A program made the position numbers and the translations under genes. A model generated the notes under the pieces. That model did no database searches. It had not been told where the DNA came from and was given only the letters and a program-made list of their open reading frames with translations. Shown in pieces: positions 3,749 to 48,337 of a stretch of DNA of 64,000 nucleotides (position 1 is the first letter of the stretch; each line of letters starts with the position of its first letter). The stretch is from an uncultured delta proteobacterium (GTDB taxonomy: Bacteria; Desulfobacterota; Binatia; UBA9968), in NCBI GenBank assembly GCA_963727625.1, contig CAVSHR010000005.1, positions 608,001-672,000 of the forward strand, read 5' to 3'.

Positions 3749-5197
3749 ATGCTGTACCGCCTATTGGTAAACCAGAGCGACAAAAATCCGCGAAAGATCG
3801 CAGTTGTCGGCGAGCGACGGTCGGTTTCTTACCGCCAGCTAGTCAAGGAGGTGCGAAGCGCCGCTACCTATTTACATAAACATGGTTTTCGGGCCGGTGA
3901 TTATGTAATCCTCGGCATACCGCCAAGTCCGGAATTCTACGTCTTATTCTACGCCGCCGCCACACTAGGAATCGTTTCACTTCCGGTCCCGCCGGCGGGA
4001 AAGTTATCCTCCCATGTGAAGCCTCGCGGGCGCGTCGCCATTGCCGGGGACCAAACATTTCTGCGTAACTCGGGGAATTTCAACTTCGAAGTCGGTTTGG
4101 TTATGCCGTGGAATAGAGATACCGGTCTTGGCATTCCGACCGCAGCGGGAAAACTAAGCAGAAACAAAATCGTACGAGCGGCCGATGTCCTCGGCACCTC
4201 GACGTCAGGAACTACCGGTGAACCGGTTATTTTCACACGCTCGGCGACAGAGCTCTATCATCGTGCCCGCTTGCGCATCGAGAGCATGAAAATACGCCGC
4301 GACGACATCCTGCTCTCGGCGGGACCGTTCACGAGCGGTGTCAACGCGGTCTTTCATTTGGTCCTGCCAATTATCGCAGGCTGCCAGGTCGTGGTGTTGG
4401 AGCAATTCGACCGCCGCAAAACCGTCGATGCGATTCAGCATCGAAGGATCACCGTGCTTTGCTCCATTCCCCTCACCTTCGAGGTGCTCGCCCATCTTCC
4501 CAAGAATTACCCGGCTGATCTCTCATCGCTGCGCCTGTGCATTTCCAACGGCGCGCCGCTGTCCAAAAACATTTACCAAAGGTTCTACGAGCGATTCGCG
4601 ATCGGCATCGGCCAGATGTACGGCGGCAGCGACTTCGCACCGGCCTTCACATGCAACCGCGGCGACGCAGCGGAAGCGGTCGGGCAACGATCCGGTCCCT
4701 TTCCGACCAAAGTCGTCGGCGATCACGGCCGCGCGCTACCTAACGGCCGGGTCGGCGAAATCGTATTTGATCTCGCCGGTGTTTCGAACCGCGCCTTGAA
4801 GGCGGTTCTGCTGAAAAATCCCAATTGCCGTGGCCGTTATCTCTATACCGGCGATCTCGGGCGCTTCGATGACCGGGACAATCTGTTCGTGGTCGGACGA
4901 AAAAACTCTCTCATCAAAGTTGGCGCGGTGCGAGTCATGGCTGGAGAAGTGGAAAATGTTTTAAGATCGCATCCGAAGGTTCGTGAAACACTCGTATACC
5001 CATTACGGCCGGGAGAAACCGATGAAGCCGTGGGCGCCGTGGTGGTGCGCGATGGCGAGCTGTCCGCGGAAGATCTTATCGCATATTGCGCCCGGCGATT
5101 GGATCGATACAAATGCCCCCGGTCGATTGTGTTTCGGCGCCATTTGCCGCGCAACCAGCATGGCAAAATCAGCCCGTATTTATTCATGCATCGATAA
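3749..5197 (+). CDS. Class I adenylate-forming enzyme (AMP-binding ligase), module copy 1
   Basis: TSGTTGEP, YTGDLG, GRK..LIKVG, EVENVL..HP, LPRN.HGKI; start taken at MLYR (3749) by comparison with the paralogs at 7509 and 13269. Confidence 0.85.
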   Translation: MLYRLLVNQSDKNPRKIAVVGERRSVSYRQLVKEVRSAATYLHKHGFRAGDYVILGIPPSPEFYVLFYAAATLGIVSLPVPPAGKLSSHVKPRGRVAIAGDQTFLRNSGNFNFEVGLVMPWNRDTGLGIPTAAGKLSRNKIVRAADVLGTSTSGTTGEPVIFTRSATELYHRARLRIESMKIRRDDILLSAGPFTSGVNAVFHLVLPIIAGCQVVVLEQFDRRKTVDAIQHRRITVLCSIPLTFEVLAHLPKNYPADLSSLRLCISNGAPLSKNIYQRFYERFAIGIGQMYGGSDFAPAFTCNRGDAAEAVGQRSGPFPTKVVGDHGRALPNGRVGEIVFDLAGVSNRALKAVLLKNPNCRGRYLYTGDLGRFDDRDNLFVVGRKNSLIKVGAVRVMAGEVENVLRSHPKVRETLVYPLRPGETDEAVGAVVVRDGELSAEDLIAYCARRLDRYKCPRSIVFRRHLPRNQHGKISPYLFMHR

Positions 5198-9499: not shown

Positions 9500-10377
9500 A
9501 TGAAGCTGTCGATCCTGCACCTGTTTTATCAGTGTTCTGCGCTGTATGGGTTCAGCAAGAATACATCGCTGAAACTCTCCTCGCCATTTGTCGGCGCACA
9601 GCCGGCCTATCGCTTTGCTTTACTTCAATCCGCACACGCGGAGATACTTACGACCGCTCCGCAGCGTGCTCGAATCCCAAGGCGACCCGGAGCGCTTGAG
9701 CGACATCGCCAAAAAGCATCTGGTCTACCGACGCTATCTCGACAACCTGGCCTTTGCCTGGCGCGGACAAATCCAGCGCCAACTAGACCTGTTCGATGTC
9801 GATGGGGAAGCACATCACCAAGCCGCGCTCGCGGCGGGCAAGGGCGCGATCATTTTTTCGAGCCATAACTTCGGCGTCAATCGGCTGATCTCGCCGGTGC
9901 TATCGAAGTTCGGCTATTCCATCCGCCGGGTCGGCGCCTGGGACGACGAAGCGATGACGCGACTCTGGGGCAATGAGGAGGAGCGCAGGTGGAAAAATTC
10001 CGCTCGGCGCCGATCGCTGGAGTCGCCTTCGTGCCGGCCAGCAAATTACTTCGGCTCTCAAAGGCAACTCACTGGTCTGTGTCTCGATTTCCAACCAAGC
10101 CATCGGCCCTCCGGAACAGCAGGTGTGCGTTTTTGGCAGGACTTTTTACGTCGACTCGGCAATCCTTCAGCTCTTGGAAAATCTCAACACGGTTATTCTA
10201 CCGTGTTTCGTGCTTTGCAACGATCGTGGGAGGGTCCAACTGATCTTGCATCCGCCTCTGGCCGGGACGATCGATGCAACGTCACAGACCTACTGCAAGG
10301 TATTCTCGGATTACCTCACCCGATTCCCGGAGTTTTGCCGTTTCTGGAAGCCCTTGGTACAAAACAGGCCGCGGTGG
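9500..10377 (+). pseudogene. LpxL-like acyltransferase, copy 2, frameshifted
   Basis: Three frames together align to the 15303 protein (MKLS..., ETLLAICR...FNPHTRRYL...HNFGVNR, KIPLGADRW...PEFCRFWKPLVQ); frameshifts near 9570 and 9995; stop codon lost. Confidence 0.85.
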
Positions 10378-11784: not shown

Positions 11785-11931
11785 TTTTATGCTGTGGATT
11801 CTGGCCTCCGCTCTGATAGAAGTCAATTGTTTCCGGCACGAATTGGCCGGTCAGCGCTTCGCTCGCGAGATCACCGCTGGGTTCCGGAGGAGAAACCGGT
11901 TCAACAGCCTCGACCGGCCGCGAGAATCGCC

Positions 11932-12489
11932 ATGAATAACCCTTGCGACACGCCGAGCACACTCCACACCATCGGCCATTCGACGCGAAATTTTTCGTCC
12001 TTCGCTGAATTGCTGGCCGCCCATTCGATGCGCTTGGTGATCGACGTGCGGCGCTGGCCGGCGTCGCGCCGCTATCCCCACTTCAACCGCGAGCCTCTCG
12101 CCGCAGCGTTAAAAGAGAGCGGCATCGATTATCTCTGGCGCGGCGATCTGGGCGGCTTTCGCAAACCGCAACCCGGCTCACTCAACACGGGATGGCGGGT
12201 CGCAGCCTTCCGCGCCTATGGCGATTTCATGCTGACAGAGGCGTTCGAGCGCATCGCTAAGGAGATCGAAGCGCGCGCCGAACGGTCGCCCAGCGCGCTC
12301 ATGTGCGCGGAGGCGGTACCCTGGCGCTGCCACCGCCGGCTGCTCGCCGATGCGTTCCTGGTACGCGGCTGGACCGTGCGGCATATCATGGATGACGGAT
12401 GCCATGAACATGGGCTGACGGAATTCGCCGCAGTCGACGGGATTCGGATCGTTTACGAAAAGCGCCCTTCTTGCGGCGAAATCCGATGA
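11932..12489 (+). CDS. DUF488 family protein
   Basis: TIGHSTR, DVRRWP.SRR.PHFN, LGGFRK, LMCAEAVPWRCHRRL.AD. Confidence 0.9.
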   Translation: MNNPCDTPSTLHTIGHSTRNFSSFAELLAAHSMRLVIDVRRWPASRRYPHFNREPLAAALKESGIDYLWRGDLGGFRKPQPGSLNTGWRVAAFRAYGDFMLTEAFERIAKEIEARAERSPSALMCAEAVPWRCHRRLLADAFLVRGWTVRHIMDDGCHEHGLTEFAAVDGIRIVYEKRPSCGEIR

Positions 12490-41468: not shown

Positions 41469-42542
41469 ATGGCGGAATTTGTAATCGACGCCGACGGCCA
41501 TATCATGGAAGACCACAAGGAGATCTTTGGCCGTATCAAGGGCAACTTCGGTGAAATGAACTGGCATTCGACCTGGCCGATGTTCGACGCGGACGGCTGG
41601 CAGCGCGGCCTGTCGCGCAAGGGCAAGCGCGAAGATCCCGACGCCGAAGCCTGGATTCGATTTCAGGATGAAAACGGCATTGACTGCGCCGTCCTCTATC
41701 CGACCTCCGCGCTGGCGATCGGAATGATTCAGCTGCCCGCCTGGGCATCAGCGCTGGCGCAAGGCTACAACGACTGGCTTTACGACCGCTTCACCAGCCA
41801 AACTCCGCGCTTGAAAGGCGTAGCCCTGCTCGCTCCGCAGGACCCCAAAGCTGCCGCCGCCGAGCTGCGCCGTTGTGTCAAAGAACTCGGCTTTTGCGCC
41901 GGTCTGCTACCGTCCGTAACCAACAACCGGCTGCCGCTCTATGGCTCGCCGGTGTTCCACGAGATTTACGACGAAGCCCAGCGACTCGACGTGCCGCTTA
42001 CCATCCACGGCGGCGTCAGCCAAAACTTGGGCCTCGATCGTGTCGCAAGCTTTCTGGAAGCGCACATGCTCGAGCACCCGCTCGGTCTATTTTTGCAAAT
42101 TACCAATATGATGTTTCAGGGCGTGTTTCAGGAGTTTCCCAAGCTGCGCGTGGCCTACCTCGAAGCCGGCGCCGGCTGGGTGCCGTTCATGATGGACCGG
42201 ATGGAGGAAGACTACGAAAAATTCGCCGCCCGCCTGGCGCCGCACTTGAAGAATCCGCCCAGCCATTTTTTCACGAGCGGCAATATCTTCGTCACCATGG
42301 AAGTCGAAGAACGCACCGCCCCTTACATCGCCGACCTGTTCCGCGACGACGTCATCATGTGGGCCTCCGACTTTCCCCACGAGCGCGAGCGGGATCAGTT
42401 CGGCGGCGACCTCCCCCACTTAAAAGCACGTAAGGATCTATCCGACGACTTCAAGCGCAAAATGCTTTACGACAACCCGGTGCGGTTCTACCGCTTCAGC
42501 GAAGGCGATATCGCGGCGGTAAAGAAGACAAAAGGCAGTTAA
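41469..42542 (+). CDS. Amidohydrolase_2 family protein
   Basis: IDADGH, LYPT, YNDWL, IHGG, YLEAGAGWVP, WASDFPH, DNP.RFY. Confidence 0.9.
   Translation: MAEFVIDADGHIMEDHKEIFGRIKGNFGEMNWHSTWPMFDADGWQRGLSRKGKREDPDAEAWIRFQDENGIDCAVLYPTSALAIGMIQLPAWASALAQGYNDWLYDRFTSQTPRLKGVALLAPQDPKAAAAELRRCVKELGFCAGLLPSVTNNRLPLYGSPVFHEIYDEAQRLDVPLTIHGGVSQNLGLDRVASFLEAHMLEHPLGLFLQITNMMFQGVFQEFPKLRVAYLEAGAGWVPFMMDRMEEDYEKFAARLAPHLKNPPSHFFTSGNIFVTMEVEERTAPYIADLFRDDVIMWASDFPHERERDQFGGDLPHLKARKDLSDDFKRKMLYDNPVRFYRFSEGDIAAVKKTKGS
42398..42542 (+). repeat. Direct repeat copy 1: functional 3' end of the amidohydrolase gene
   Basis: GTTCGGCGGCGACCT...TTCAGCGAAGGCGATAT...AAAAGGCAGTTAA recurs at 43495 and 44379. Confidence 0.9.
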
Positions 42543-42715
42543 CTGCGATATTTAACCGGCGGTCTCTGCCCGACGGCGCTGTGTTTTTCGCGACGCCGGT
42601 TTCTTTATCGAAAGGTTTTGGCAACCCCTAAGGCGCTTGCCGCGAGCCAGGGTGCGTCGTCGGCCACATTATAGATCCACGCGAAGGCTGAACCGGAATC
42701 GGCTCAAGCCACCGG

Positions 42716-43054
42716 CTAGATTCCGACAATCTCGTTCAATCCTTCAACGATCTGAGCTATTTCTTCCGGAGATGCCCTTCCAATGAGATTTCCAATTCTT
42801 TCAACCGCAAGCGTTCGAATTTGGCTAATCTTCACCCACGACTTTTTCGGAAGCCCCCTGGCATGAAGTTCAAGGGTTAGAGGAAAGCCTGCGCGTTGAG
42901 GTTGACTCGTGAGAGCAACAGCAATCACGGTTCCAGAACGTTCATTAAAGACGTCCTGACTTAGAATCAAAACCGGACGTTGCCCTGCTTGTTCTCGCCC
43001 TCGTACCGGGTTCAAGTCGGCCCAGCGAATTTCTCCCCTCAGTATTCGGGCCAC
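42716..43054 (-). CDS. mazF: PemK/MazF family toxin
   Basis: RGEI.WADLNPV.G.EQAG.RPVLILS...FN, SQIRTL..ERI. Confidence 0.92.
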
Positions 43055-43281
43055 TCCGCTAAGTCCTCCGAAAGACCCTCTTCTGCAAGCGCCTTCTCAA
43101 ACGTGGAATCAAGTTTCGCGCACTCTTGGGCTAGGCGACTTTTCTCAAGCCGCGCGAGTTTCTCCGTAACAGCTTCCTCGATGGCCTGGCTACGGTTGGG
43201 AAAGACCTGTTTCTTAACCAGTTGATCGAGACGATCCAGGGTGGATTCATCTAAAGAAATTGCAACTTTGGATCTTGCCAT
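43039..43281 (-). CDS. Ribbon-helix-helix (CopG-type) antitoxin
   Basis: KVAISLD...L..LD.LV....[12 protein letters not shown]; acidic C-terminus WPEY overlapping the toxin start. Confidence 0.9.
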
Positions 43282-43293
43282 GACTCACCTCAA

Positions 43294-43328
43294 GGTATGA
43301 CGATACTTCATACCATAATCTGGGTCAA
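43294..43328 (-). promoter_or_regulatory. TA promoter with palindromic operator
   Basis: Minus-strand TTGACC-17-TATCGT overlapped by the GGTATGA-N7-TCATACC inverted repeat (43294-43314). Confidence 0.7.
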
Positions 43329-43344
43329 GCCACTGTGTCTTTGA

Positions 43345-43501
43345 ACCTAACGATTAAGTGAGCTGCCATAAATGGCGACAAACGCCGGTCGCCTTGCGTT
43401 CGAAGACGGGTCTGACGATAAAGTTCAAATCATTCGCAATATCCGCTTAGCTACCTCTACTTGTCAACGTGAAGGTTCGCGCCAAACGCCGCCGGTTCGG
43501 C
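43345..43501 (+). other. Degenerate attC-like element
   Basis: ACCTAAC-GATTAAGTGAGC left end; ...GCCAAACGCCGCCG-GTTCGGC right end; left end echoed at 46087-46107. Confidence 0.4.
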
Positions 43502-43635
43502 AGCGACCTGTCCTGCCTTTACGCAAAGACTTGTCCGGTGACTTCAAAGGAAAATGGCTCTTCGACAACCCTGTGCGGTTTTACCGCTTCAGCGAAGGCG
43601 ATATTACGGCGGCGAAGGGGGCAAAAGGCAGCTGA
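43495..43635 (+). repeat. Direct repeat copy 2: orphan amidohydrolase 3' end
   Basis: Encodes RKDLSGDFKGKWLFDNPVRFYRFSEGDITAAKGAKGS*; small deletion near its 5' end. Confidence 0.9.
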
Positions 43636-43655
43636 AGGCCCTTCGCCACGACGGC

Positions 43656-44027
43656 TTACGACCAGAATCGGCGCAGGTCGAACGATAATTGACGATGGCG
43701 TTTGATGGCTATGAAATAAATTCGAGTTCGCCTGACCAAATAGAGCACAACATAATCGTCGACCACGAATTCACGCAGGTTGTCGCCGGCCCGAAGCCTT
43801 TCGCGAAGACGTTCAATCAGCTTCTCCGCGTCAGCCGAACCGGCATGGTGCCCCAAGAACGAACGGCCAGACAAAGGGAATCGGGATAATTGCGGACAGA
43901 TATCGTCGAATAAACGATCGAGCAAACGTTGAAACGCTATACGCCCCTCGACGGATAGAAACTCTTGAATTTCGTCTAAGTTGGCGGTGAAGTTCTGAGT
44001 GAAAAAGAGCTGCGACTTACCGGCCAT
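43656..44027 (-). CDS. RelE/ParE family toxin
   Basis: FTQNF..NLDEI, L.RFP.SGR, LRE....DY.VLY, IAIK.HRQLSFD; overlaps the upstream Phd gene. Confidence 0.8.
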   Translation of the reverse strand: MAGKSQLFFTQNFTANLDEIQEFLSVEGRIAFQRLLDRLFDDICPQLSRFPLSGRSFLGHHAGSADAEKLIERLRERLRAGDNLREFVVDDYVVLYLVRRTRIYFIAIKRHRQLSFDLRRFWS

Positions 44028-44298
44028 ACCGGGCTTTCAGTTTCGCGGCGCTGACAACCTTTCCGGCCTCCACATCATCCAATCCTCGAACGGCCTCCTC
44101 AAGTAGCCTAATGTGGATATGTTCGCGCTCCAATCGATGGTAGTAGTCCAACCGTTCCGCATCGATCAAGGCCGCGCAACTCTCGCCATTTTTTGTGAGA
44201 ATTTTTTCCCCGTGATCTCGCTGGACCTCAGCGCAGAGCTCGGTCAACTTTGACCGCGCCCGCGTGAGCGAGATGATGTCCTTCGATGAAATTGGCAT
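44017..44298 (-). CDS. Phd/YefM family antitoxin
   Basis: IISLTRARSKLTEL..EV.....KILTKNGE..AALI. Confidence 0.88.
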   Translation of the reverse strand: MPISSKDIISLTRARSKLTELCAEVQRDHGEKILTKNGESCAALIDAERLDYYHRLEREHIHIRLLEEAVRGLDDVEAGKVVSAAKLKARYGR

Positions 44299-44333
44299 CG
44301 GGCTGTCTCCTTTTAGAAAAGCTTAAATAACGT

Positions 44334-44348
44334 ACAGAATTCTGTCAA
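44334..44348 (-). promoter_or_regulatory. Palindromic operator overlapping the -35 of the phd-relE promoter
   Basis: ACAGAATTCTGT perfect palindrome; minus-strand TTGACA at 44343-44348. Confidence 0.6.
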
Positions 44349-44378
44349 CTACCAACTCTGGTGCACCTCGCAATGAAG

Positions 44379-44520
44379 CGGTGGCGACCTCCCCCACCTC
44401 TACGCCCGCAAGGACCTATCCAACGATTTCAAACGGAAAATGCTCTACGACAACCCGGTGCGCTTCTACCGTTTCAGCGAAGGCGATATCGCGGCGGTGA
44501 GGCAGGCAAAAGGCAGCTAA
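44379..44520 (+). repeat. Direct repeat copy 3: orphan amidohydrolase 3' end
   Basis: Open frame GGDLPHLYARKDLSNDFKRKMLYDNPVRFYRFSEGDIAAVRQAKGS*, 41/46 aa identical to the gene end. Confidence 0.92.
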
Positions 44521-44633
44521 CTTCGACATTTGATCCGTTAGTCTTTGACTGACGTTGCCGCGCTTTTCACGGCGCCGTTTTCTTTTCCAAAAAAATCTAG
44601 CAACCACTTAGCGCCACCGAACGGGACAGTATT

Positions 44634-45066
44634 TCACCGACCTTGATCGCATCTACGAACGCGTATGGCTAGTACTACACCCAAGGCGCCTGCGATCGAC
44701 ACCGCCGCAAGGAGAAGCAAAGCGATATCGATGCGACACCCATTACATCGTCCGCCTCGAGGTGCCAAGAGCCGCTGGCTCGCGAGAACACAAAGATAAG
44801 CATCAACGGTAACCCAAGGAGCGCAACACTCAACAGTATGTGGTAGCCGAACGCAAGTATCGGAGACGTAACAGACCTCGACACTCTTCTCCACTGCGCA
44901 AAGACGCTCACCGGCAGAGTGGAAACACACAGCAAACAGGCAAGAAATATGGGCAGCCGCGTGTGACGGTTGTAGAGGAAGAAGTTTGAGCTATACGCAA
45001 AGTGAAGGCCCAAAACCAGACGCCCACCCAGATTATACCGGCGACTGCCAACAGCGTTTTCTTCAT
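44634..45066 (-). pseudogene. Frameshifted small membrane protein of unknown function
   Basis: Hydrophobic segments spread over three frames (MKKTLLAVAGIIW..., LPIFLACLLCV...LLSVALLGLPLMLIF, IDIALLLLAAVSIAGALG). Confidence 0.45.
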
Positions 45067-45157
45067 TAGTCTTTGTAGAGAACTATCCATCTATTACAAC
45101 ATCAAGAAAAGTAGTAGCCGTCACTGCAGCGTCCACTGCAATACGTCGTTAGAAACC

Positions 45158-46060
45158 CTATCTGCGATACTCTTCAAAGAAGCTGTCGTCTAGGTCGTAA
45201 GTTGTGATCGGCCGCAAGCCGAGTTCGAGCGATGCGAATAGATCAACTAGTTTCTCGCCATCTACGAGCTCGATCGGGGGAGCGCCATCCCGTGTTGCTT
45301 CGCGACGCGCTTCTGCAGAAAACGAGCCGGTTGTAACGATGAGACCCTTATCGGCGCGTCCTTGCATCGCGCCACGAAAATCTCGCACATGGCTTGGTGA
45401 GACCGATCCCACAAATCGCTTACACTGAAAGAGGACACGAAAGCTGACGAATGCGTTAAGGGCCAAAACTCCATGGCCATCAATTCCACCGTCACCACTT
45501 TTGCCGGTCACTATGACCTGCTCAAATCCGGCTTCTCGCAGTAGACGCTGACATATCCGTTCGAATCCACCTGGCGGAAGTCCTTTTAGAATTTCAAGTA
45601 ATTTTGAACGATAGTCGCCTTTATCGGAATCCGGTGCCAGCTGCTCAGCATCGCTTTCACTAGGCTTGGCAGCAACTGGAGCTTTAGATTGCGCGCTTGA
45701 TTGCGAAGTGAGAACAGTGCGAGCACTCACATCCCGCGACCCTTGTTGCACACGCTCTACAAGCTCTGAAATTGCACCCGTGCTAAGTTGTCCACACCTT
45801 GCGCCGGCATCCGTCAGCTTCCACACCCCGTGACGCGACCGATCGATGAGTCCTCCCTCTGCGAGATAGAAGCGTGCCCAGTGTACTTGGTTTGGGAAAC
45901 GTTGCCCACCCGCAGGGTTGATTTGATCTAGGATATCGTCTCCGACGTTCTCGTTCCTTGCGACTCGCTCAACGACTTCGCGAGGTCGCGCGGATCCGCC
46001 AAGTTCAGTCAGAGCACGAAGAACTGGATTGATCCGTTTCGAGAATTCTGGGCCAGTCAT
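45158..46060 (-). CDS. mrr: Mrr-family type IV restriction endonuclease
   Basis: N-terminal wHTH (LGGSA...F.NQVHWAR.YL...G.W.LT) + FERIC.RLL, SGDGGIDG, QCKR, VRDFRGAM, IELVDG; lower GC than flanks. Confidence 0.92.
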   Translation of the reverse strand: MTGPEFSKRINPVLRALTELGGSARPREVVERVARNENVGDDILDQINPAGGQRFPNQVHWARFYLAEGGLIDRSRHGVWKLTDAGARCGQLSTGAISELVERVQQGSRDVSARTVLTSQSSAQSKAPVAAKPSESDAEQLAPDSDKGDYRSKLLEILKGLPPGGFERICQRLLREAGFEQVIVTGKSGDGGIDGHGVLALNAFVSFRVLFQCKRFVGSVSPSHVRDFRGAMQGRADKGLIVTTGSFSAEARREATRDGAPPIELVDGEKLVDLFASLELGLRPITTYDLDDSFFEEYRR

Positions 46061-46274
46061 ATCGCGATAGTAAAATTCTTAAGCCGTTCTTATTATTAAG
46101 TGAGCCGTCGTTATCTGTGACACATGCGGGTCAGGCATCCTAGCGTCGGAGTCCAGTTAAGTTCTAATCGTTCGCGATATCCACTGGCCACCTTAAGCCG
46201 TAAACGCAACGATAGTTGGGCGGTGTCGGTTTTGCTAGCGCTCGGTGCCTTATTTCACCAAAGTATAAACGAGC

Positions 46275-47270
46275 TTACCGCCCCATAAGTTTTTTCAGAA
46301 AACCTTCTTCTTCCAGCTTTTTCAAATAGCGGTCGTTAATAAACTTTTTCGCGTCGGCTTTGGCTGCCTTCGGATCGGTTTCCGCTAGGGTATCGACCAC
46401 CGCCTGCATCGCCACTAAAGAAGGATAGGGAATGTCGGGGATGCGCGCCTTATTGTACTCATAAGCCTCTTTAAGCAGCTCCATGTCGTTCACTTTGCTG
46501 AACTGGGAGAGCGCCTTTAAGGTGTATTCCGGCTCGGTTTTGAAAATCTTGATCGCCTCAAGGTAGGCACGCAGAAAATTTAACATCCGCGGCTCATTTT
46601 TCTGCATCATTTGAGCACTGCCGCACATCCCCGTATTGAAGTACGTGATGTTGAGCGCGCCGGCGTCGGCAAGAATATTGAAATTGAATTTCTTCGCCTC
46701 GGCGCCGAAGGGAGCGTTGAAAATCGTCCCGTCGATGCCGCCCGACTTGAGCGCCACCAGCCGCTGGGTTTCATTGCCGATTTGGAGAATCGTTACGTCC
46801 TTGGGATCGATGCCGACTCTCTTGAGCAGGACTTTCGTGCTGAAGTCGGAGGAAGAACCAAAGCGGCTGATGCCCAATCGTTTGCCCTTCAGATCGGCGG
46901 GCTTTTTGATGTCCTGGCGCGTCACCATTTGATAGCCCATTTTGTCATCGGTCATCGCAATATAGACGATATCCGCGCCTTTCAGGTTGGCGATAACGCC
47001 CGGAGGGCCGGTCAACTGAGCCAAGTCGATGTCCCCGGAAACCAGCGCTTGAATCGCTACCGACCCGCCCGGAACATAAACCAGCACCGACGATAGACCG
47101 TACTTGGCATACAGTCCCCGCTTCTCGGCAATCCACGCAAGTAGCGCATGGGGATTCACCGAGCTGTAGGCGATCCGAATCGGCTCGGCAGCCCGTGCGG
47201 AAACCGCGCCAAAAGAAGAAAAAACCAAACTGACGATAAATAAAACGATACTGCCGACAAATCGTGCCAT
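46275..47270 (-). CDS. NMT1/THI5-type substrate-binding protein
   Basis: Signal peptide from ATG 47270; IAEKRGLYAKYGL, DLKGKRLGISRFGSSSD. Confidence 0.88.
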   Translation of the reverse strand: MARFVGSIVLFIVSLVFSSFGAVSARAAEPIRIAYSSVNPHALLAWIAEKRGLYAKYGLSSVLVYVPGGSVAIQALVSGDIDLAQLTGPPGVIANLKGADIVYIAMTDDKMGYQMVTRQDIKKPADLKGKRLGISRFGSSSDFSTKVLLKRVGIDPKDVTILQIGNETQRLVALKSGGIDGTIFNAPFGAEAKKFNFNILADAGALNITYFNTGMCGSAQMMQKNEPRMLNFLRAYLEAIKIFKTEPEYTLKALSQFSKVNDMELLKEAYEYNKARIPDIPYPSLVAMQAVVDTLAETDPKAAKADAKKFINDRYLKKLEEEGFLKKLMGR

Positions 47271-47293: not shown

Positions 47294-48337
47294 TCAAAGC
47301 GCAAACAACGCCTTGGCATTCTTGTAGAGAATCTTCTCTTTGGTCTCGTTCGACAGCTGCTTGTGGCCGCGCAGGTCGTGCAAGTTGTGCGGAAACTCGT
47401 TGTCCCAGTGCGGGATGTCCGAGGCATAGAGAAAGTGATCGGCGCCGACGTAGTCGACGGTAGCCGCGAGCTGTGACTCGCCCGGCTCGACGCTGAAATA
47501 CAGCTTCGACTCCCGCACGATCTCGCTGGGCTTTTTCTTGAGCAGCGGCATTTCGATCTCCGCGCGTTTCTCCCAATGCTCGTCCAGCCGGTCGAGATAG
47601 TACGGCAGCCAGGTCGCGCCGATTTCCAAGAAAGCCAGCTTCAACTTTGGAAAGCGAATCGGCAAACCCTGGCAGACGATGCTGGTGAATTGCAATAGAA
47701 TCCCGACGGGAAACGCGTACGAGTGAACTTCGGCGAAGGTGGCCAAACTCGATGTACCGAGCTCGCGCGAGGTGTTGCGTGTGCCATGAATGCCCAGGAC
47801 AATGCCGAGACGCTCGGCTTCCTCGTAGATTGGATCATAGAAGGAATCGCCGAGCGCCAGCGGCAATCCGGTCGGCAGGATCTCGAAGCCTTTCAAGCCC
47901 AACTGCGTCACTGCCCGGCGCATTTCCTCGGCGGCAGCTTTCGGCGAGCGCATCGGCAGGCAGCCGACGCACGAGAGCCGATCCGAGCGCGCGTTGTATT
48001 CCTTGGCGAAGTGGGTGTTGCTGGCGCGGCTGACGGCGATTTGATACGGCACCTCCTGATTCTTGGCGATGTTTCCCGAACCGGTCGGAAAGCAAATCGC
48101 TTTCTCGATATCGTATTCGTCCATGAGCTTGTGCCAGCGGTCGACTTGCTCGGCGGCGCCCAGCCCTTTCCACTCCCGTGCCATCTCGAAGGAGTTCATC
48201 ATGTCGTTGTCCCAGGGCTGATCGCCGGGCCAAAGCGGCGTCGGCCGTTTGATCCAGGGTTCTTCGAGATATTTGCGGATGTCGGCTTGCCGTTCGAGAA
48301 CGTGACCGTCGGTATCGATGACCGGAAAATTCTCCAT
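47294..48337 (-). CDS. Amidohydrolase_2 family protein
   Basis: IDTDGH, FPT, IHG, FLEIGATWLP, YASDIPHWD, NA..LF. Confidence 0.9.
   Translation of the reverse strand: MENFPVIDTDGHVLERQADIRKYLEEPWIKRPTPLWPGDQPWDNDMMNSFEMAREWKGLGAAEQVDRWHKLMDEYDIEKAICFPTGSGNIAKNQEVPYQIAVSRASNTHFAKEYNARSDRLSCVGCLPMRSPKAAAEEMRRAVTQLGLKGFEILPTGLPLALGDSFYDPIYEEAERLGIVLGIHGTRNTSRELGTSSLATFAEVHSYAFPVGILLQFTSIVCQGLPIRFPKLKLAFLEIGATWLPYYLDRLDEHWEKRAEIEMPLLKKKPSEIVRESKLYFSVEPGESQLAATVDYVGADHFLYASDIPHWDNEFPHNLHDLRGHKQLSNETKEKILYKNAKALFAL

Follow-up and report, generated by a model that had tools for sequence, protein, structure and literature searches.

Site-specific integration classically leaves direct repeats of the 3' end of a gene, with a replacement tail. 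At fda, copies of the gene's 3' end separate the tandem integrase-less units of the integrative and cis-mobilisable elements ICESt1/CIME; such repeats are att sites that have a fixed core and arise through the tyrosine integrase of a sister element. Insertion of restriction-modification (RM) units with long target duplication was reportedly described by Nobusato et al. in 2000. Furuta, Abe & Kobayashi (2010; PMC2853133) present RM units lying between direct repeats of variable length, 30 to ~420 bp, of which relatives with an empty site have a single copy. For the effector-immunity arrays of type VI secretion systems (T6SS), homology-facilitated illegitimate recombination without an integrase has been proposed (Kirchberger et al. 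2017, PMC5361080, which also cites the displacement of Rhs C-termini and orphan CdiA/Rhs modules), and the minimal mobile elements of Neisseria (Saunders & Snyder 2002; Snyder 2007, both as related in PMC3787668) have a variable content of small genes between conserved flanks, homologous exchange and no mobility genes. It is with these systems that we compare a locus of an uncultured delta proteobacterium from soil (Desulfobacterota; Binatia; UBA9968), found in a stretch of 64,000 nucleotides (contig CAVSHR010000005.1, positions 608,001 to 672,000) that is called the window below and in whose numbering positions are given. In it, the 3' end (~145 bp) of an amidohydrolase gene is present again downstream, twice and in the same orientation, amid toxin-antitoxin (TA) and restriction genes. 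We propose, with a probability of roughly 0.6, that the array grew by homology-anchored capture: by homology-facilitated illegitimate recombination, or by a single crossover of a circular fragment, a donor tail and a cassette would have come in and the resident tail would have been pushed downstream.

The array runs from the gene through a MazF-ribbon-helix-helix (RHH) pair, copy 2 of the tail, a ParE-Phd pair, copy 3, some unmatched pieces of open reading frames (ORFs) and an Mrr gene to a binding-protein gene, with all the cargo genes between and after the tail copies on the minus strand. The amidohydrolase gene itself (41469-42542, plus strand; Amidohydro_2, PF04909, 2.2e-31) is intact, encodes 357 aa, and has orthologues at 88-94% aa identity in 26 same-genus genomes. 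Its working 3' end, copy 1 (42398-42542, plus strand), is the reference copy, in the alignment, of the three-copy direct repeat family D1 returned by a repeat search of the window: 42401-42553, 43494-43646 (66%, ungapped) and 44379-44531 (86%). Search and alignment agree with the initial annotation of the window, made from its letters alone, which had placed the repeated ends at 43495-43635 and 44379-44520; a scan of the 6.6 Mb genome for the tail found no copies beyond these three, the next match having E=0.009. Copy 2 (43495-43635, plus strand) is a frameshifted relic that terminates at its own stop codon, and copy 3 (44379-44520, plus strand) a relic with an open frame and an in-frame TGA right upstream. 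That all copies start within a few bases of each other, as had been claimed, is borne out by the MAFFT alignment (GTTCGGC begins copy 2, and copy 3 begins a few bases later); that all of them end at the stop codon is true of copy 2 only. The homology of copies 1 and 3 extends ~90 bp beyond the stop (42401-42632 vs 44379-44611, 79%) and includes a terminator-like hairpin: the first ~90 bp of T1, the post-stop stretch of the gene (42543-42715, plus strand), are homologous to T3, the corresponding stretch of copy 3 (44521-44611, plus strand; hairpin at 44560-44575).

The cargo is largely of the addiction type. Nearest to the gene is a MazF/PemK-type toxin gene (42716-43054, minus strand; PF02452, 3.1e-29, 101.8 bits, profile positions 2-108 of 109) with an RHH antitoxin gene (43039-43281, minus strand; PF01402, 3.6e-09, 36.7 bits). 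Beyond copy 2 comes a ParE-type toxin gene (43656-44027, minus strand; PF05016, 7.8e-08, 33.2 bits; 65-84% aa identity to same-locus copies in relatives) with a Phd/YefM-type antitoxin gene (44017-44298, minus strand; PF02604, 1.7e-06; 75-90% aa identity to copies in relatives). The MazF, RHH and ParE matches exceed the curated Pfam cut-offs; the Phd match, at 28.1 bits, is slightly below its cut-off of 29.8. As adjacent small genes of toxin and antitoxin families, both are predicted type II pairs. Beyond copy 3 lies an Mrr-type Type IV restriction endonuclease gene (45158-46060, minus strand; Mrr_N and Mrr_cat, PF14338 and PF04471; PADLOC mREase_IV, 1.5e-24). Pfam and PADLOC thereby bear out the reverse-oriented RHH-MazF, Phd-RelE/ParE and Mrr genes of the initial annotation; its "membrane-protein remnant" corresponds to overlapping ORF pieces (44634-45090, minus strand) that have no Pfam or PADLOC match.

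What are the extra tails? Copy 3 is 84-86% identical to the working end with its frame preserved, and codon by codon the two differ by 13 synonymous and 9 non-synonymous changes (dN/dS 0.14). At the amino acid level there are 6 differences in 47 codons, and leaving out the boundary codon makes it 5 in 46; the codon counts given in the initial annotation (13 synonymous changes, 5 amino acid differences in 46 codons) are reproduced on recomputation. Copy 2 is more diverged (66-79%), and a 4-nt gap ~9 codons in shifts its frame. Non-coding T1 and T3 are 69% identical, as against the 84-86% of the coding tail, and the flank repeats D' and D, described below, are about two-thirds identical; for non-coding parts this is divergence of donor scale. 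The same signature is seen more widely. Comparing the genome with itself yielded 333 short-range direct-repeat matches, reduced to 54 pairs by removing dense repeat-protein regions, and 16 relic/intact pairs were chosen from these where the ORF was a Pfam-supported gene in the right frame. Over 955 codons they hold 231 synonymous and 134 non-synonymous differences, 4 stops and 6 gap columns. The ratio of non-synonymous to synonymous differences per site (pN/pS) is 0.18, where ~0.55 would be expected for the neutral decay of an in-situ duplicate beside a constrained copy (P = 3e-26). (A technical note: when all 54 pairs are pooled the value is 0.36; the automatic choice of ORF leaves frames unverified at many of the pairs, where pN/pS is 1 or more.) The differences are evenly spread and fall mostly at third codon positions (41 synonymous vs 6 non-synonymous in a FAD_binding_2 pair); the relics are not translated in frame, copy 3 with its upstream TGA being an example; and they diverge from the working ends by 13-20%, the between-species level in the genus. 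Because pN/pS is 0.18 over the 16 pairs, we read the relics as displaced working alleles, working gene ends in some lineage until recently and not decayed in-situ duplicates. The initial annotation had argued as much for copy 3, as having evolved as a working C-terminus, and on the codon signature its further proposal, that each event brings a replacement 3' end and displaces the old one, most likely holds too.

It is here that the reading given in PMC2853133 for RM units flanked by 30-420 bp repeats has to be weighed: both tail copies would then come from the same genome, by duplication of the target, with one of them decaying afterwards. Some loci would suit it. The relics of G005, G021, L122 and L129 are 90-96% identical to the working tail of their own genome, closer than to that of any other species, and the pair at a Usp locus of this genome is 98.5% identical. 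Relics that had merely decayed should not, however, show a pN/pS of 0.18 with so few stops and indels, nor should copies 1 and 3 differ by 13 synonymous and only 9 non-synonymous changes while non-coding T1 and T3 are alike at 69% only. We regard target duplication as an improbable account of the array; the closeness of relics to their own working tails in several relatives could reflect local duplication or gene conversion. The likeness to the long target duplication units of PMC2853133 is nevertheless plain: there, as in the window, addiction-type genes lie between long repeats without a transposase or integrase, and a lone Type IV restriction gene figures among the cases, as Mrr does here. 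The window's insert is likewise flanked by long direct repeats that are single-copy at empty sites (G012, G018 and 21 of 53 metagenome loci, described below) and carries no mobility gene. The differences are that the cargo here is mainly type II TA pairs, that the repeats are gene tails stacked in an array, and that the copies behave as separate alleles (pN/pS 0.18; 0.14 for copy 1 vs copy 3), not as one target duplicated. The codon test bears, too, on long target duplication itself: here at least, the copies are donor and recipient alleles. Our literature search found no paper tying "long target duplication" to type II TA pairs: judged by titles and abstract openings, 6 of the 7 papers with both terms centre on RM or methylation, and in the other, a TA review, the phrase stands solely in a reference title. 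What is new here is the cargo class, the stacking of enzyme tails into arrays genome-wide, and the codon evidence that a "duplicate" is a displaced allele.

The genome holds many loci of the same architecture. Forty regions were retrieved and the ORFs of 38 of them scanned (L098 and L101 were omitted); the 54 pairs come from ~45 distinct loci, of which these regions and the window cover ~34. In at least 13 of the ~34, the window included, an intact gene end is followed by a TA or defence cassette (Pfam-supported) and then by a relic of the same end. The genes and their cargo include Ldh_2 with AbiEii/AbiEi, PALP with DUF4258/DUF2283, a cupin gene with DUF4160/DUF2442, hsdM with NYN/YhcG, and, as further examples, two other Amidohydro_2 genes (one with a PIN-like pair), HepT/MNT, HicAB, HigBA and Usp. 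The other repeat loci comprise six with small unassigned gene pairs, about twelve with ordinary genes and two Rhs orphan arrays. Every locus repeats its own flank, and some of the repeats are 5' ends. The FAD_binding_2 locus (L071, G000:C4:849545-850967) is also a hotspot, since relics corresponding to its own are found at this gene in two further species (G009:C395:2983-3167 and G023:C118:1148-1319); the intact end and the relic are equally distant (~87%) from the closest species.

Two of the loci with the window's architecture deserve further detail. L081 (G000:C6:130231-133705) is a second three-copy array, in which Gp49/HigB-like, HigB-like and BrnA antitoxin pairs lie between the copies and an ApeA-like HEPN gene comes next. 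At L088 (G000:C12:100051-102327) the 3' end of a Type I hsdM gene is present three times within the hsd operon, with genes for NYN-domain and YhcG-nuclease proteins between the copies and Fic/DOC, RhuM and DUF3644 genes further on.

Variable cargo at orthologous loci, a check that the initial annotation had suggested, is found in related species and in metagenomes alike. Of the 26 genomes with an orthologue, 22 provide a same-genus locus with downstream sequence. Two sites are empty, the binding-protein gene following ~50-330 bp past the stop of the gene (G012 and G018; the latter retains an apparent scrap of a ParE 3' end). Five of the 22 species have one to three extra gene tails each (G005, G006, G014, G019, G021), beside which lie ParE-Phd (G005, G021, G019), PIN-VapB (G021), a helix-turn-helix gene (G014) or DoxX (G006); in other species the site is occupied by 1-12 kb of unrelated genes. 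(The G005 genome is unpublished; one relic-bearing relative, the joint at -174 and the linker shared with L111, both discussed below, and part of the T-region homology come from it.) A metagenome scan added 63 orthologous loci, none above 93% aa identity, of which 53 include the end of the gene and 300 bp or more beyond it: 21 of these are empty, with a conserved neighbour (a binding-protein, second amidohydrolase or RmlD-like gene) within 250 bp, eight have ParE-Phd first and three a relic first, 11 have other inserts and 10 unrelated sequence. Relics were found at five metagenome loci by tblastn, and at seven of the 33 loci self-compared by blastn. MazF-RHH and Mrr occur at this site in the window only, among the 22 relatives' and 63 metagenome loci. 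Between the amidohydrolase gene and its convergent neighbour lies a hotspot of variable cargo.

The relatives' inserts also offer some gene finds. Directly 3' of the G007 orthologue (L057:4131-5477) is a 448-aa fusion of a TIR domain to a DnaB-like helicase C-terminus that has the look of a defence gene. An ORF of 453-470 aa without a Pfam match stands right after the amidohydrolase gene in seven relatives (L108:6441-7850, L116:4756-6168, L117:1148-2554, L131:8097-9458, L137:8132-9538, L158:618-2027 and L060:7621-9033); it may be a conserved gene of the neighbourhood.

Could the metagenome assembler have produced the array by joining strain variants of a single locus end to end? The genome is metagenome-assembled with 6.3% contamination, and the three copies share identical runs of at least 26 nt, over the conserved RFSEGDIAA block. 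Yet the junctions are unique sequences and not shared k-mers, the array is internal to a contig of 1.1 Mb in an assembly of 15 contigs, and the same architecture appears in independent assemblies (five other species and five to seven metagenome contigs). The single public sequencing run to match contains 6% of the words, and its contigs extend over no more of the window than 41830-42199. We give this explanation hardly any weight.

The two sides of the inserts behave differently. On the gene side the ParE-Phd joint is constant, always abutting the stop codon of the gene: the ParE stop lies no more than ~20 nt beyond the stop of copy 2, and the same junction of gene stop and ParE stop is found in G005, G021 and G019. 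At its far end the cassette has a conserved right end (44323-44348), TTAAATAACGTACAGAATTCTGTCAA with the palindrome ACAGAATTCTGT, which is probably the Phd operator or promoter; it is near-identical in 10 of 11 junctions, the window included (L111 has lost it with most of Phd), and the leader homology of the cassette ends there. The same TGTCAA is then followed by locus-specific sequence, with relics at differing offsets (none in L164). Because the gene-side joint is constant and the sequence after TGTCAA varies by locus, homology anchoring appears to have been one-sided. Relative to the stop, the inner relic ends are at -141 to -155 nt in window copies 2 and 3, G014, G019 (two relics), L122, L129 and L162; at ~-174 in G005 and L111, which have a common linker; and elsewhere at ~-190 (L134, L110), -205 to -218 (G019, G021, L129), ~-115 (G006) and -49 (L109). 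With joints that have related linkers counted once, ~6 of 16 fall within 15 nt and the others are spread across ~170 nt (-49 to -218). The single fixed integration site of the initial annotation is therefore not supported: the breakpoint looks like a hot zone, in which clustering is above chance but not at one site. Thirteen junction sets show no common motif and no microhomology. CGGCGG/CCGCCG was tried as a boundary motif and rejected: 11 of the 54 inner boundaries and 10 of the 54 outer ones have it, which matches its background frequency in the genome (2.6 per kb).

No element-encoded enzyme that might have made these joints has come to light. The window's inserts hold no mobility gene by Pfam scan, and the 105 ORFs downstream of the gene in relatives (inserts and some bordering genes) and the 62 metagenome-insert ORFs scanned gave no integrase, recombinase or transposase family match. 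(The 62 are from a total of 75, the 13 omitted being ParE-Phd homologues; relatives and metagenomes together make 167.) The initial annotation was thus right that the units encode no recombinase. Its suggestion to search the genome for tyrosine recombinases or IntI gives a divided answer: there are 14 PF00589 (Phage_integrase) matches and an integron integrase, and no PF00589 match lies on the window's 1.1 Mb contig.

Might the units then be decayed site-specific integrative or cis-mobilisable elements, inserted at an att site in the gene's 3' end, whose tyrosine recombinase was lost or acted in trans and of which the addiction genes alone survived? The 3'-end repeats with a replacement tail have the classic form, relic starts do cluster near GACCARTTCGGCGGCGAC (~6 of 16 joints), and the genome has the 14 PF00589 matches. 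This has to be set against the lack of a recombinase among the 167 scanned ORFs and of a tyrosine recombinase on the window's contig, the ~170-nt spread of the remaining joints, and a homology that spans the whole 140-400 bp without a core common to loci; nor, as at ICESt1/CIME, was an integrase-bearing sister element or a fixed core found. At least 13 other loci duplicate their own flanks. A single att site with a trans-acting recombinase cannot explain the pattern, because the duplicated end is in each case that of the local gene, sometimes a 5' end. We hold such elements to be an unlikely source of the array, if a shade less so than target duplication. The initial annotation had left open whether its mini-cassettes were trans-mobilised or homology-driven; the duplication of each locus's own flank speaks against the former, and the latter fits better than a site-specific route.

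Chromosomal integrons deserve separate mention: they too have directional stacks of ~1 kb cassettes rich in TA pairs with their own promoters, and reverse-oriented TA cassettes are typical of them (PMC2654758). This genome has a full-length integron integrase, on another contig (G000:C4:370957-371898; TIGR02249, 467.8 bits against a cut-off of 265, the sole match above it). One can imagine that it recombined the attC of a cassette with a secondary GTT site in the gene tail, the tail becoming part of the cassette, and copy 2 does begin at G|TTCGGC. But copy 3 and the genome-wide joints are generally not at G|TT, and the stretches left of the relic boundaries fold no better than shuffled sequence (43352-43500, 46090-46238 and 44299-44385, both strands, z -0.36 to +1.30). 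From the Phd start to copy 3 there are just 80 nt, occupied by the conserved operator-like end, and the window's cassettes have no common repeat apart from the flank repeat D/D' described below. In integrons, moreover, the integrase is adjacent, and the repeat is not the host gene's own tail, as it is here. With no attC-like folds, no adjacent integrase and joints off G|TT, we rejected integron-type capture as very improbable.

The integron integrase locus (L292:1925-3082, minus strand) has a peculiarity of its own. It adjoins clusters of 9-bp-periodic GTTCAANNN repeats in inverted pairs (L292:4226-4264, 4705-4763, 5027-5083, 9986-10026 and 11841-11954), which are unlike classical attC sites; one pair brackets a 23S-rRNA-IVP-type gene.

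How might homology-anchored capture have worked? Both its route and its order of events are our reconstruction. DNA coming in from a related lineage would consist of a gene 3' end joined to a cassette and would pair with the resident gene via the conserved tail; its other end, finding no usable homology, would be joined illegitimately inside the resident tail. Equivalently, the fragment might circularise and enter by one crossover in the tail. Such an event would leave the gene intact but ending in a donor-type tail, followed by the cassette and, downstream of it, by the resident tail as a relic. Where both arms matched, the cassette would move cleanly and leave no relic, as in minimal mobile elements. 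In the window, a resident gene with its terminator, Mrr and the binding-protein gene may have been the starting point; a tail with ParE-Phd would have been captured next, and finally a tail with terminator and MazF-RHH, together with ~140 nt of donor flank, part of which (43353-43457) is similar to the Mrr-adjacent stretch 46095-46199. TA pairs and restriction genes would predominate because they are hard to lose once inserted, and the survivors would be those events that left the enzyme gene whole.

Two of the systems introduced above come close to this. In the T6SS arrays, as PMC5361080 has it and as we propose for the window, a module enters via a conserved upstream anchor and the old 3' part is displaced into an array of orphan ends and small genes. 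What is displaced there, however, is a variable toxin domain, whose immunity partner is the gene retained, whereas the displaced end here is a conserved enzyme tail that would serve as a handle only, with cargo unrelated to the gene. Minimal mobile elements share with the window the presence of variable genes between the same conserved flanking genes in close relatives; they have two homologous arms and no duplicated flank, while here one arm would fail and the tail relic would record each event.

Several observations weigh against homology-anchored capture. The anchor identity of just 80-87% is poor for RecA-type pairing, though identical runs of ~26 nt exist. No donor-type genome with MazF-RHH at the site is found among the 22 and 63 loci, and no donor sequence turned up for any joint. 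Ku has no match in this 98% complete genome, which weakens circularisation by end-joining; ComEC is present, and would do no more than permit DNA uptake. The 16 pairs that carry the codon argument were selected by the author, and the closeness of the relics to their own working tails in G005, G021, L122 and L129 could, as said, also reflect local duplication or gene conversion. As to which tail is native, a separate question, a comparison of copies 1-3 with 31 other tails shows no clear nearest lineage, and segment-wise identity along the amidohydrolase gene reveals no breakpoint. A last point against capture is that a purely illegitimate joint does not predict the joint cluster near GACCARTTCGGCGGCGAC (~6 of 16 at -141 to -155). 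That cluster and the dozens of like loci might, at a stretch, be the output of a dedicated Binatia pathway that moves addiction cassettes with a piece of host gene and stacks them directionally. If true, it would be in effect an integron using host gene tails instead of attC, and needing no integrase.

The spread of chromosomal TA modules without transposases or integrases is a long-standing loose end, and this locus and its counterparts offer a readable record of it. The cassette would travel welded to the end of a conserved housekeeping or metabolic gene, which provides the recombination handle, and each capture would leave a datable relic in the form of the old end. Should this hold generally, recent gene captures in uncultured bacteria could be recognised by relic gene tails, and the C-termini of ordinary enzymes may be swapped between species as a side effect of such captures.

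Some features of the window and the genome remain to be listed. In some relatives, sequence 3' of the gene is homologous to T1 as well: the stretch that follows the G005 relic matches it at 77% over 135 nt, and there are hits in G025 and G006. A flank repeat of ~105 bp (repeat family D2) consists of D' (43353-43457), upstream of the RHH gene, and D (46095-46199), upstream of Mrr. The two are about two-thirds identical by eye, 71% over the first 38 nt, and the 11-mer ATTAAGTGAGC occurs only at these two sites in the genome; D/D' has no homologue in the relatives' loci, no Rfam family and no fold signal. Two genome loci, L091 (G000:C5:1074000-1078802) and L067 (G000:C2:444047-448265), have Rhs-repeat genes and repeated orphan tails; those of L091 have two IS200-type Y1 transposase genes, fused to a DnaA-C-like helix-turn-helix, interspersed among them. 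The hotspot's right border, the conserved convergent neighbour, is a gene for an NMT1-type substrate-binding protein (46275-47200, minus strand; PF09084). Two genes downstream is a second Amidohydro_2 paralogue (47294-48337, minus strand), which is 86-93% identical (aa) in relatives and whose tail is unrelated to the repeated one.

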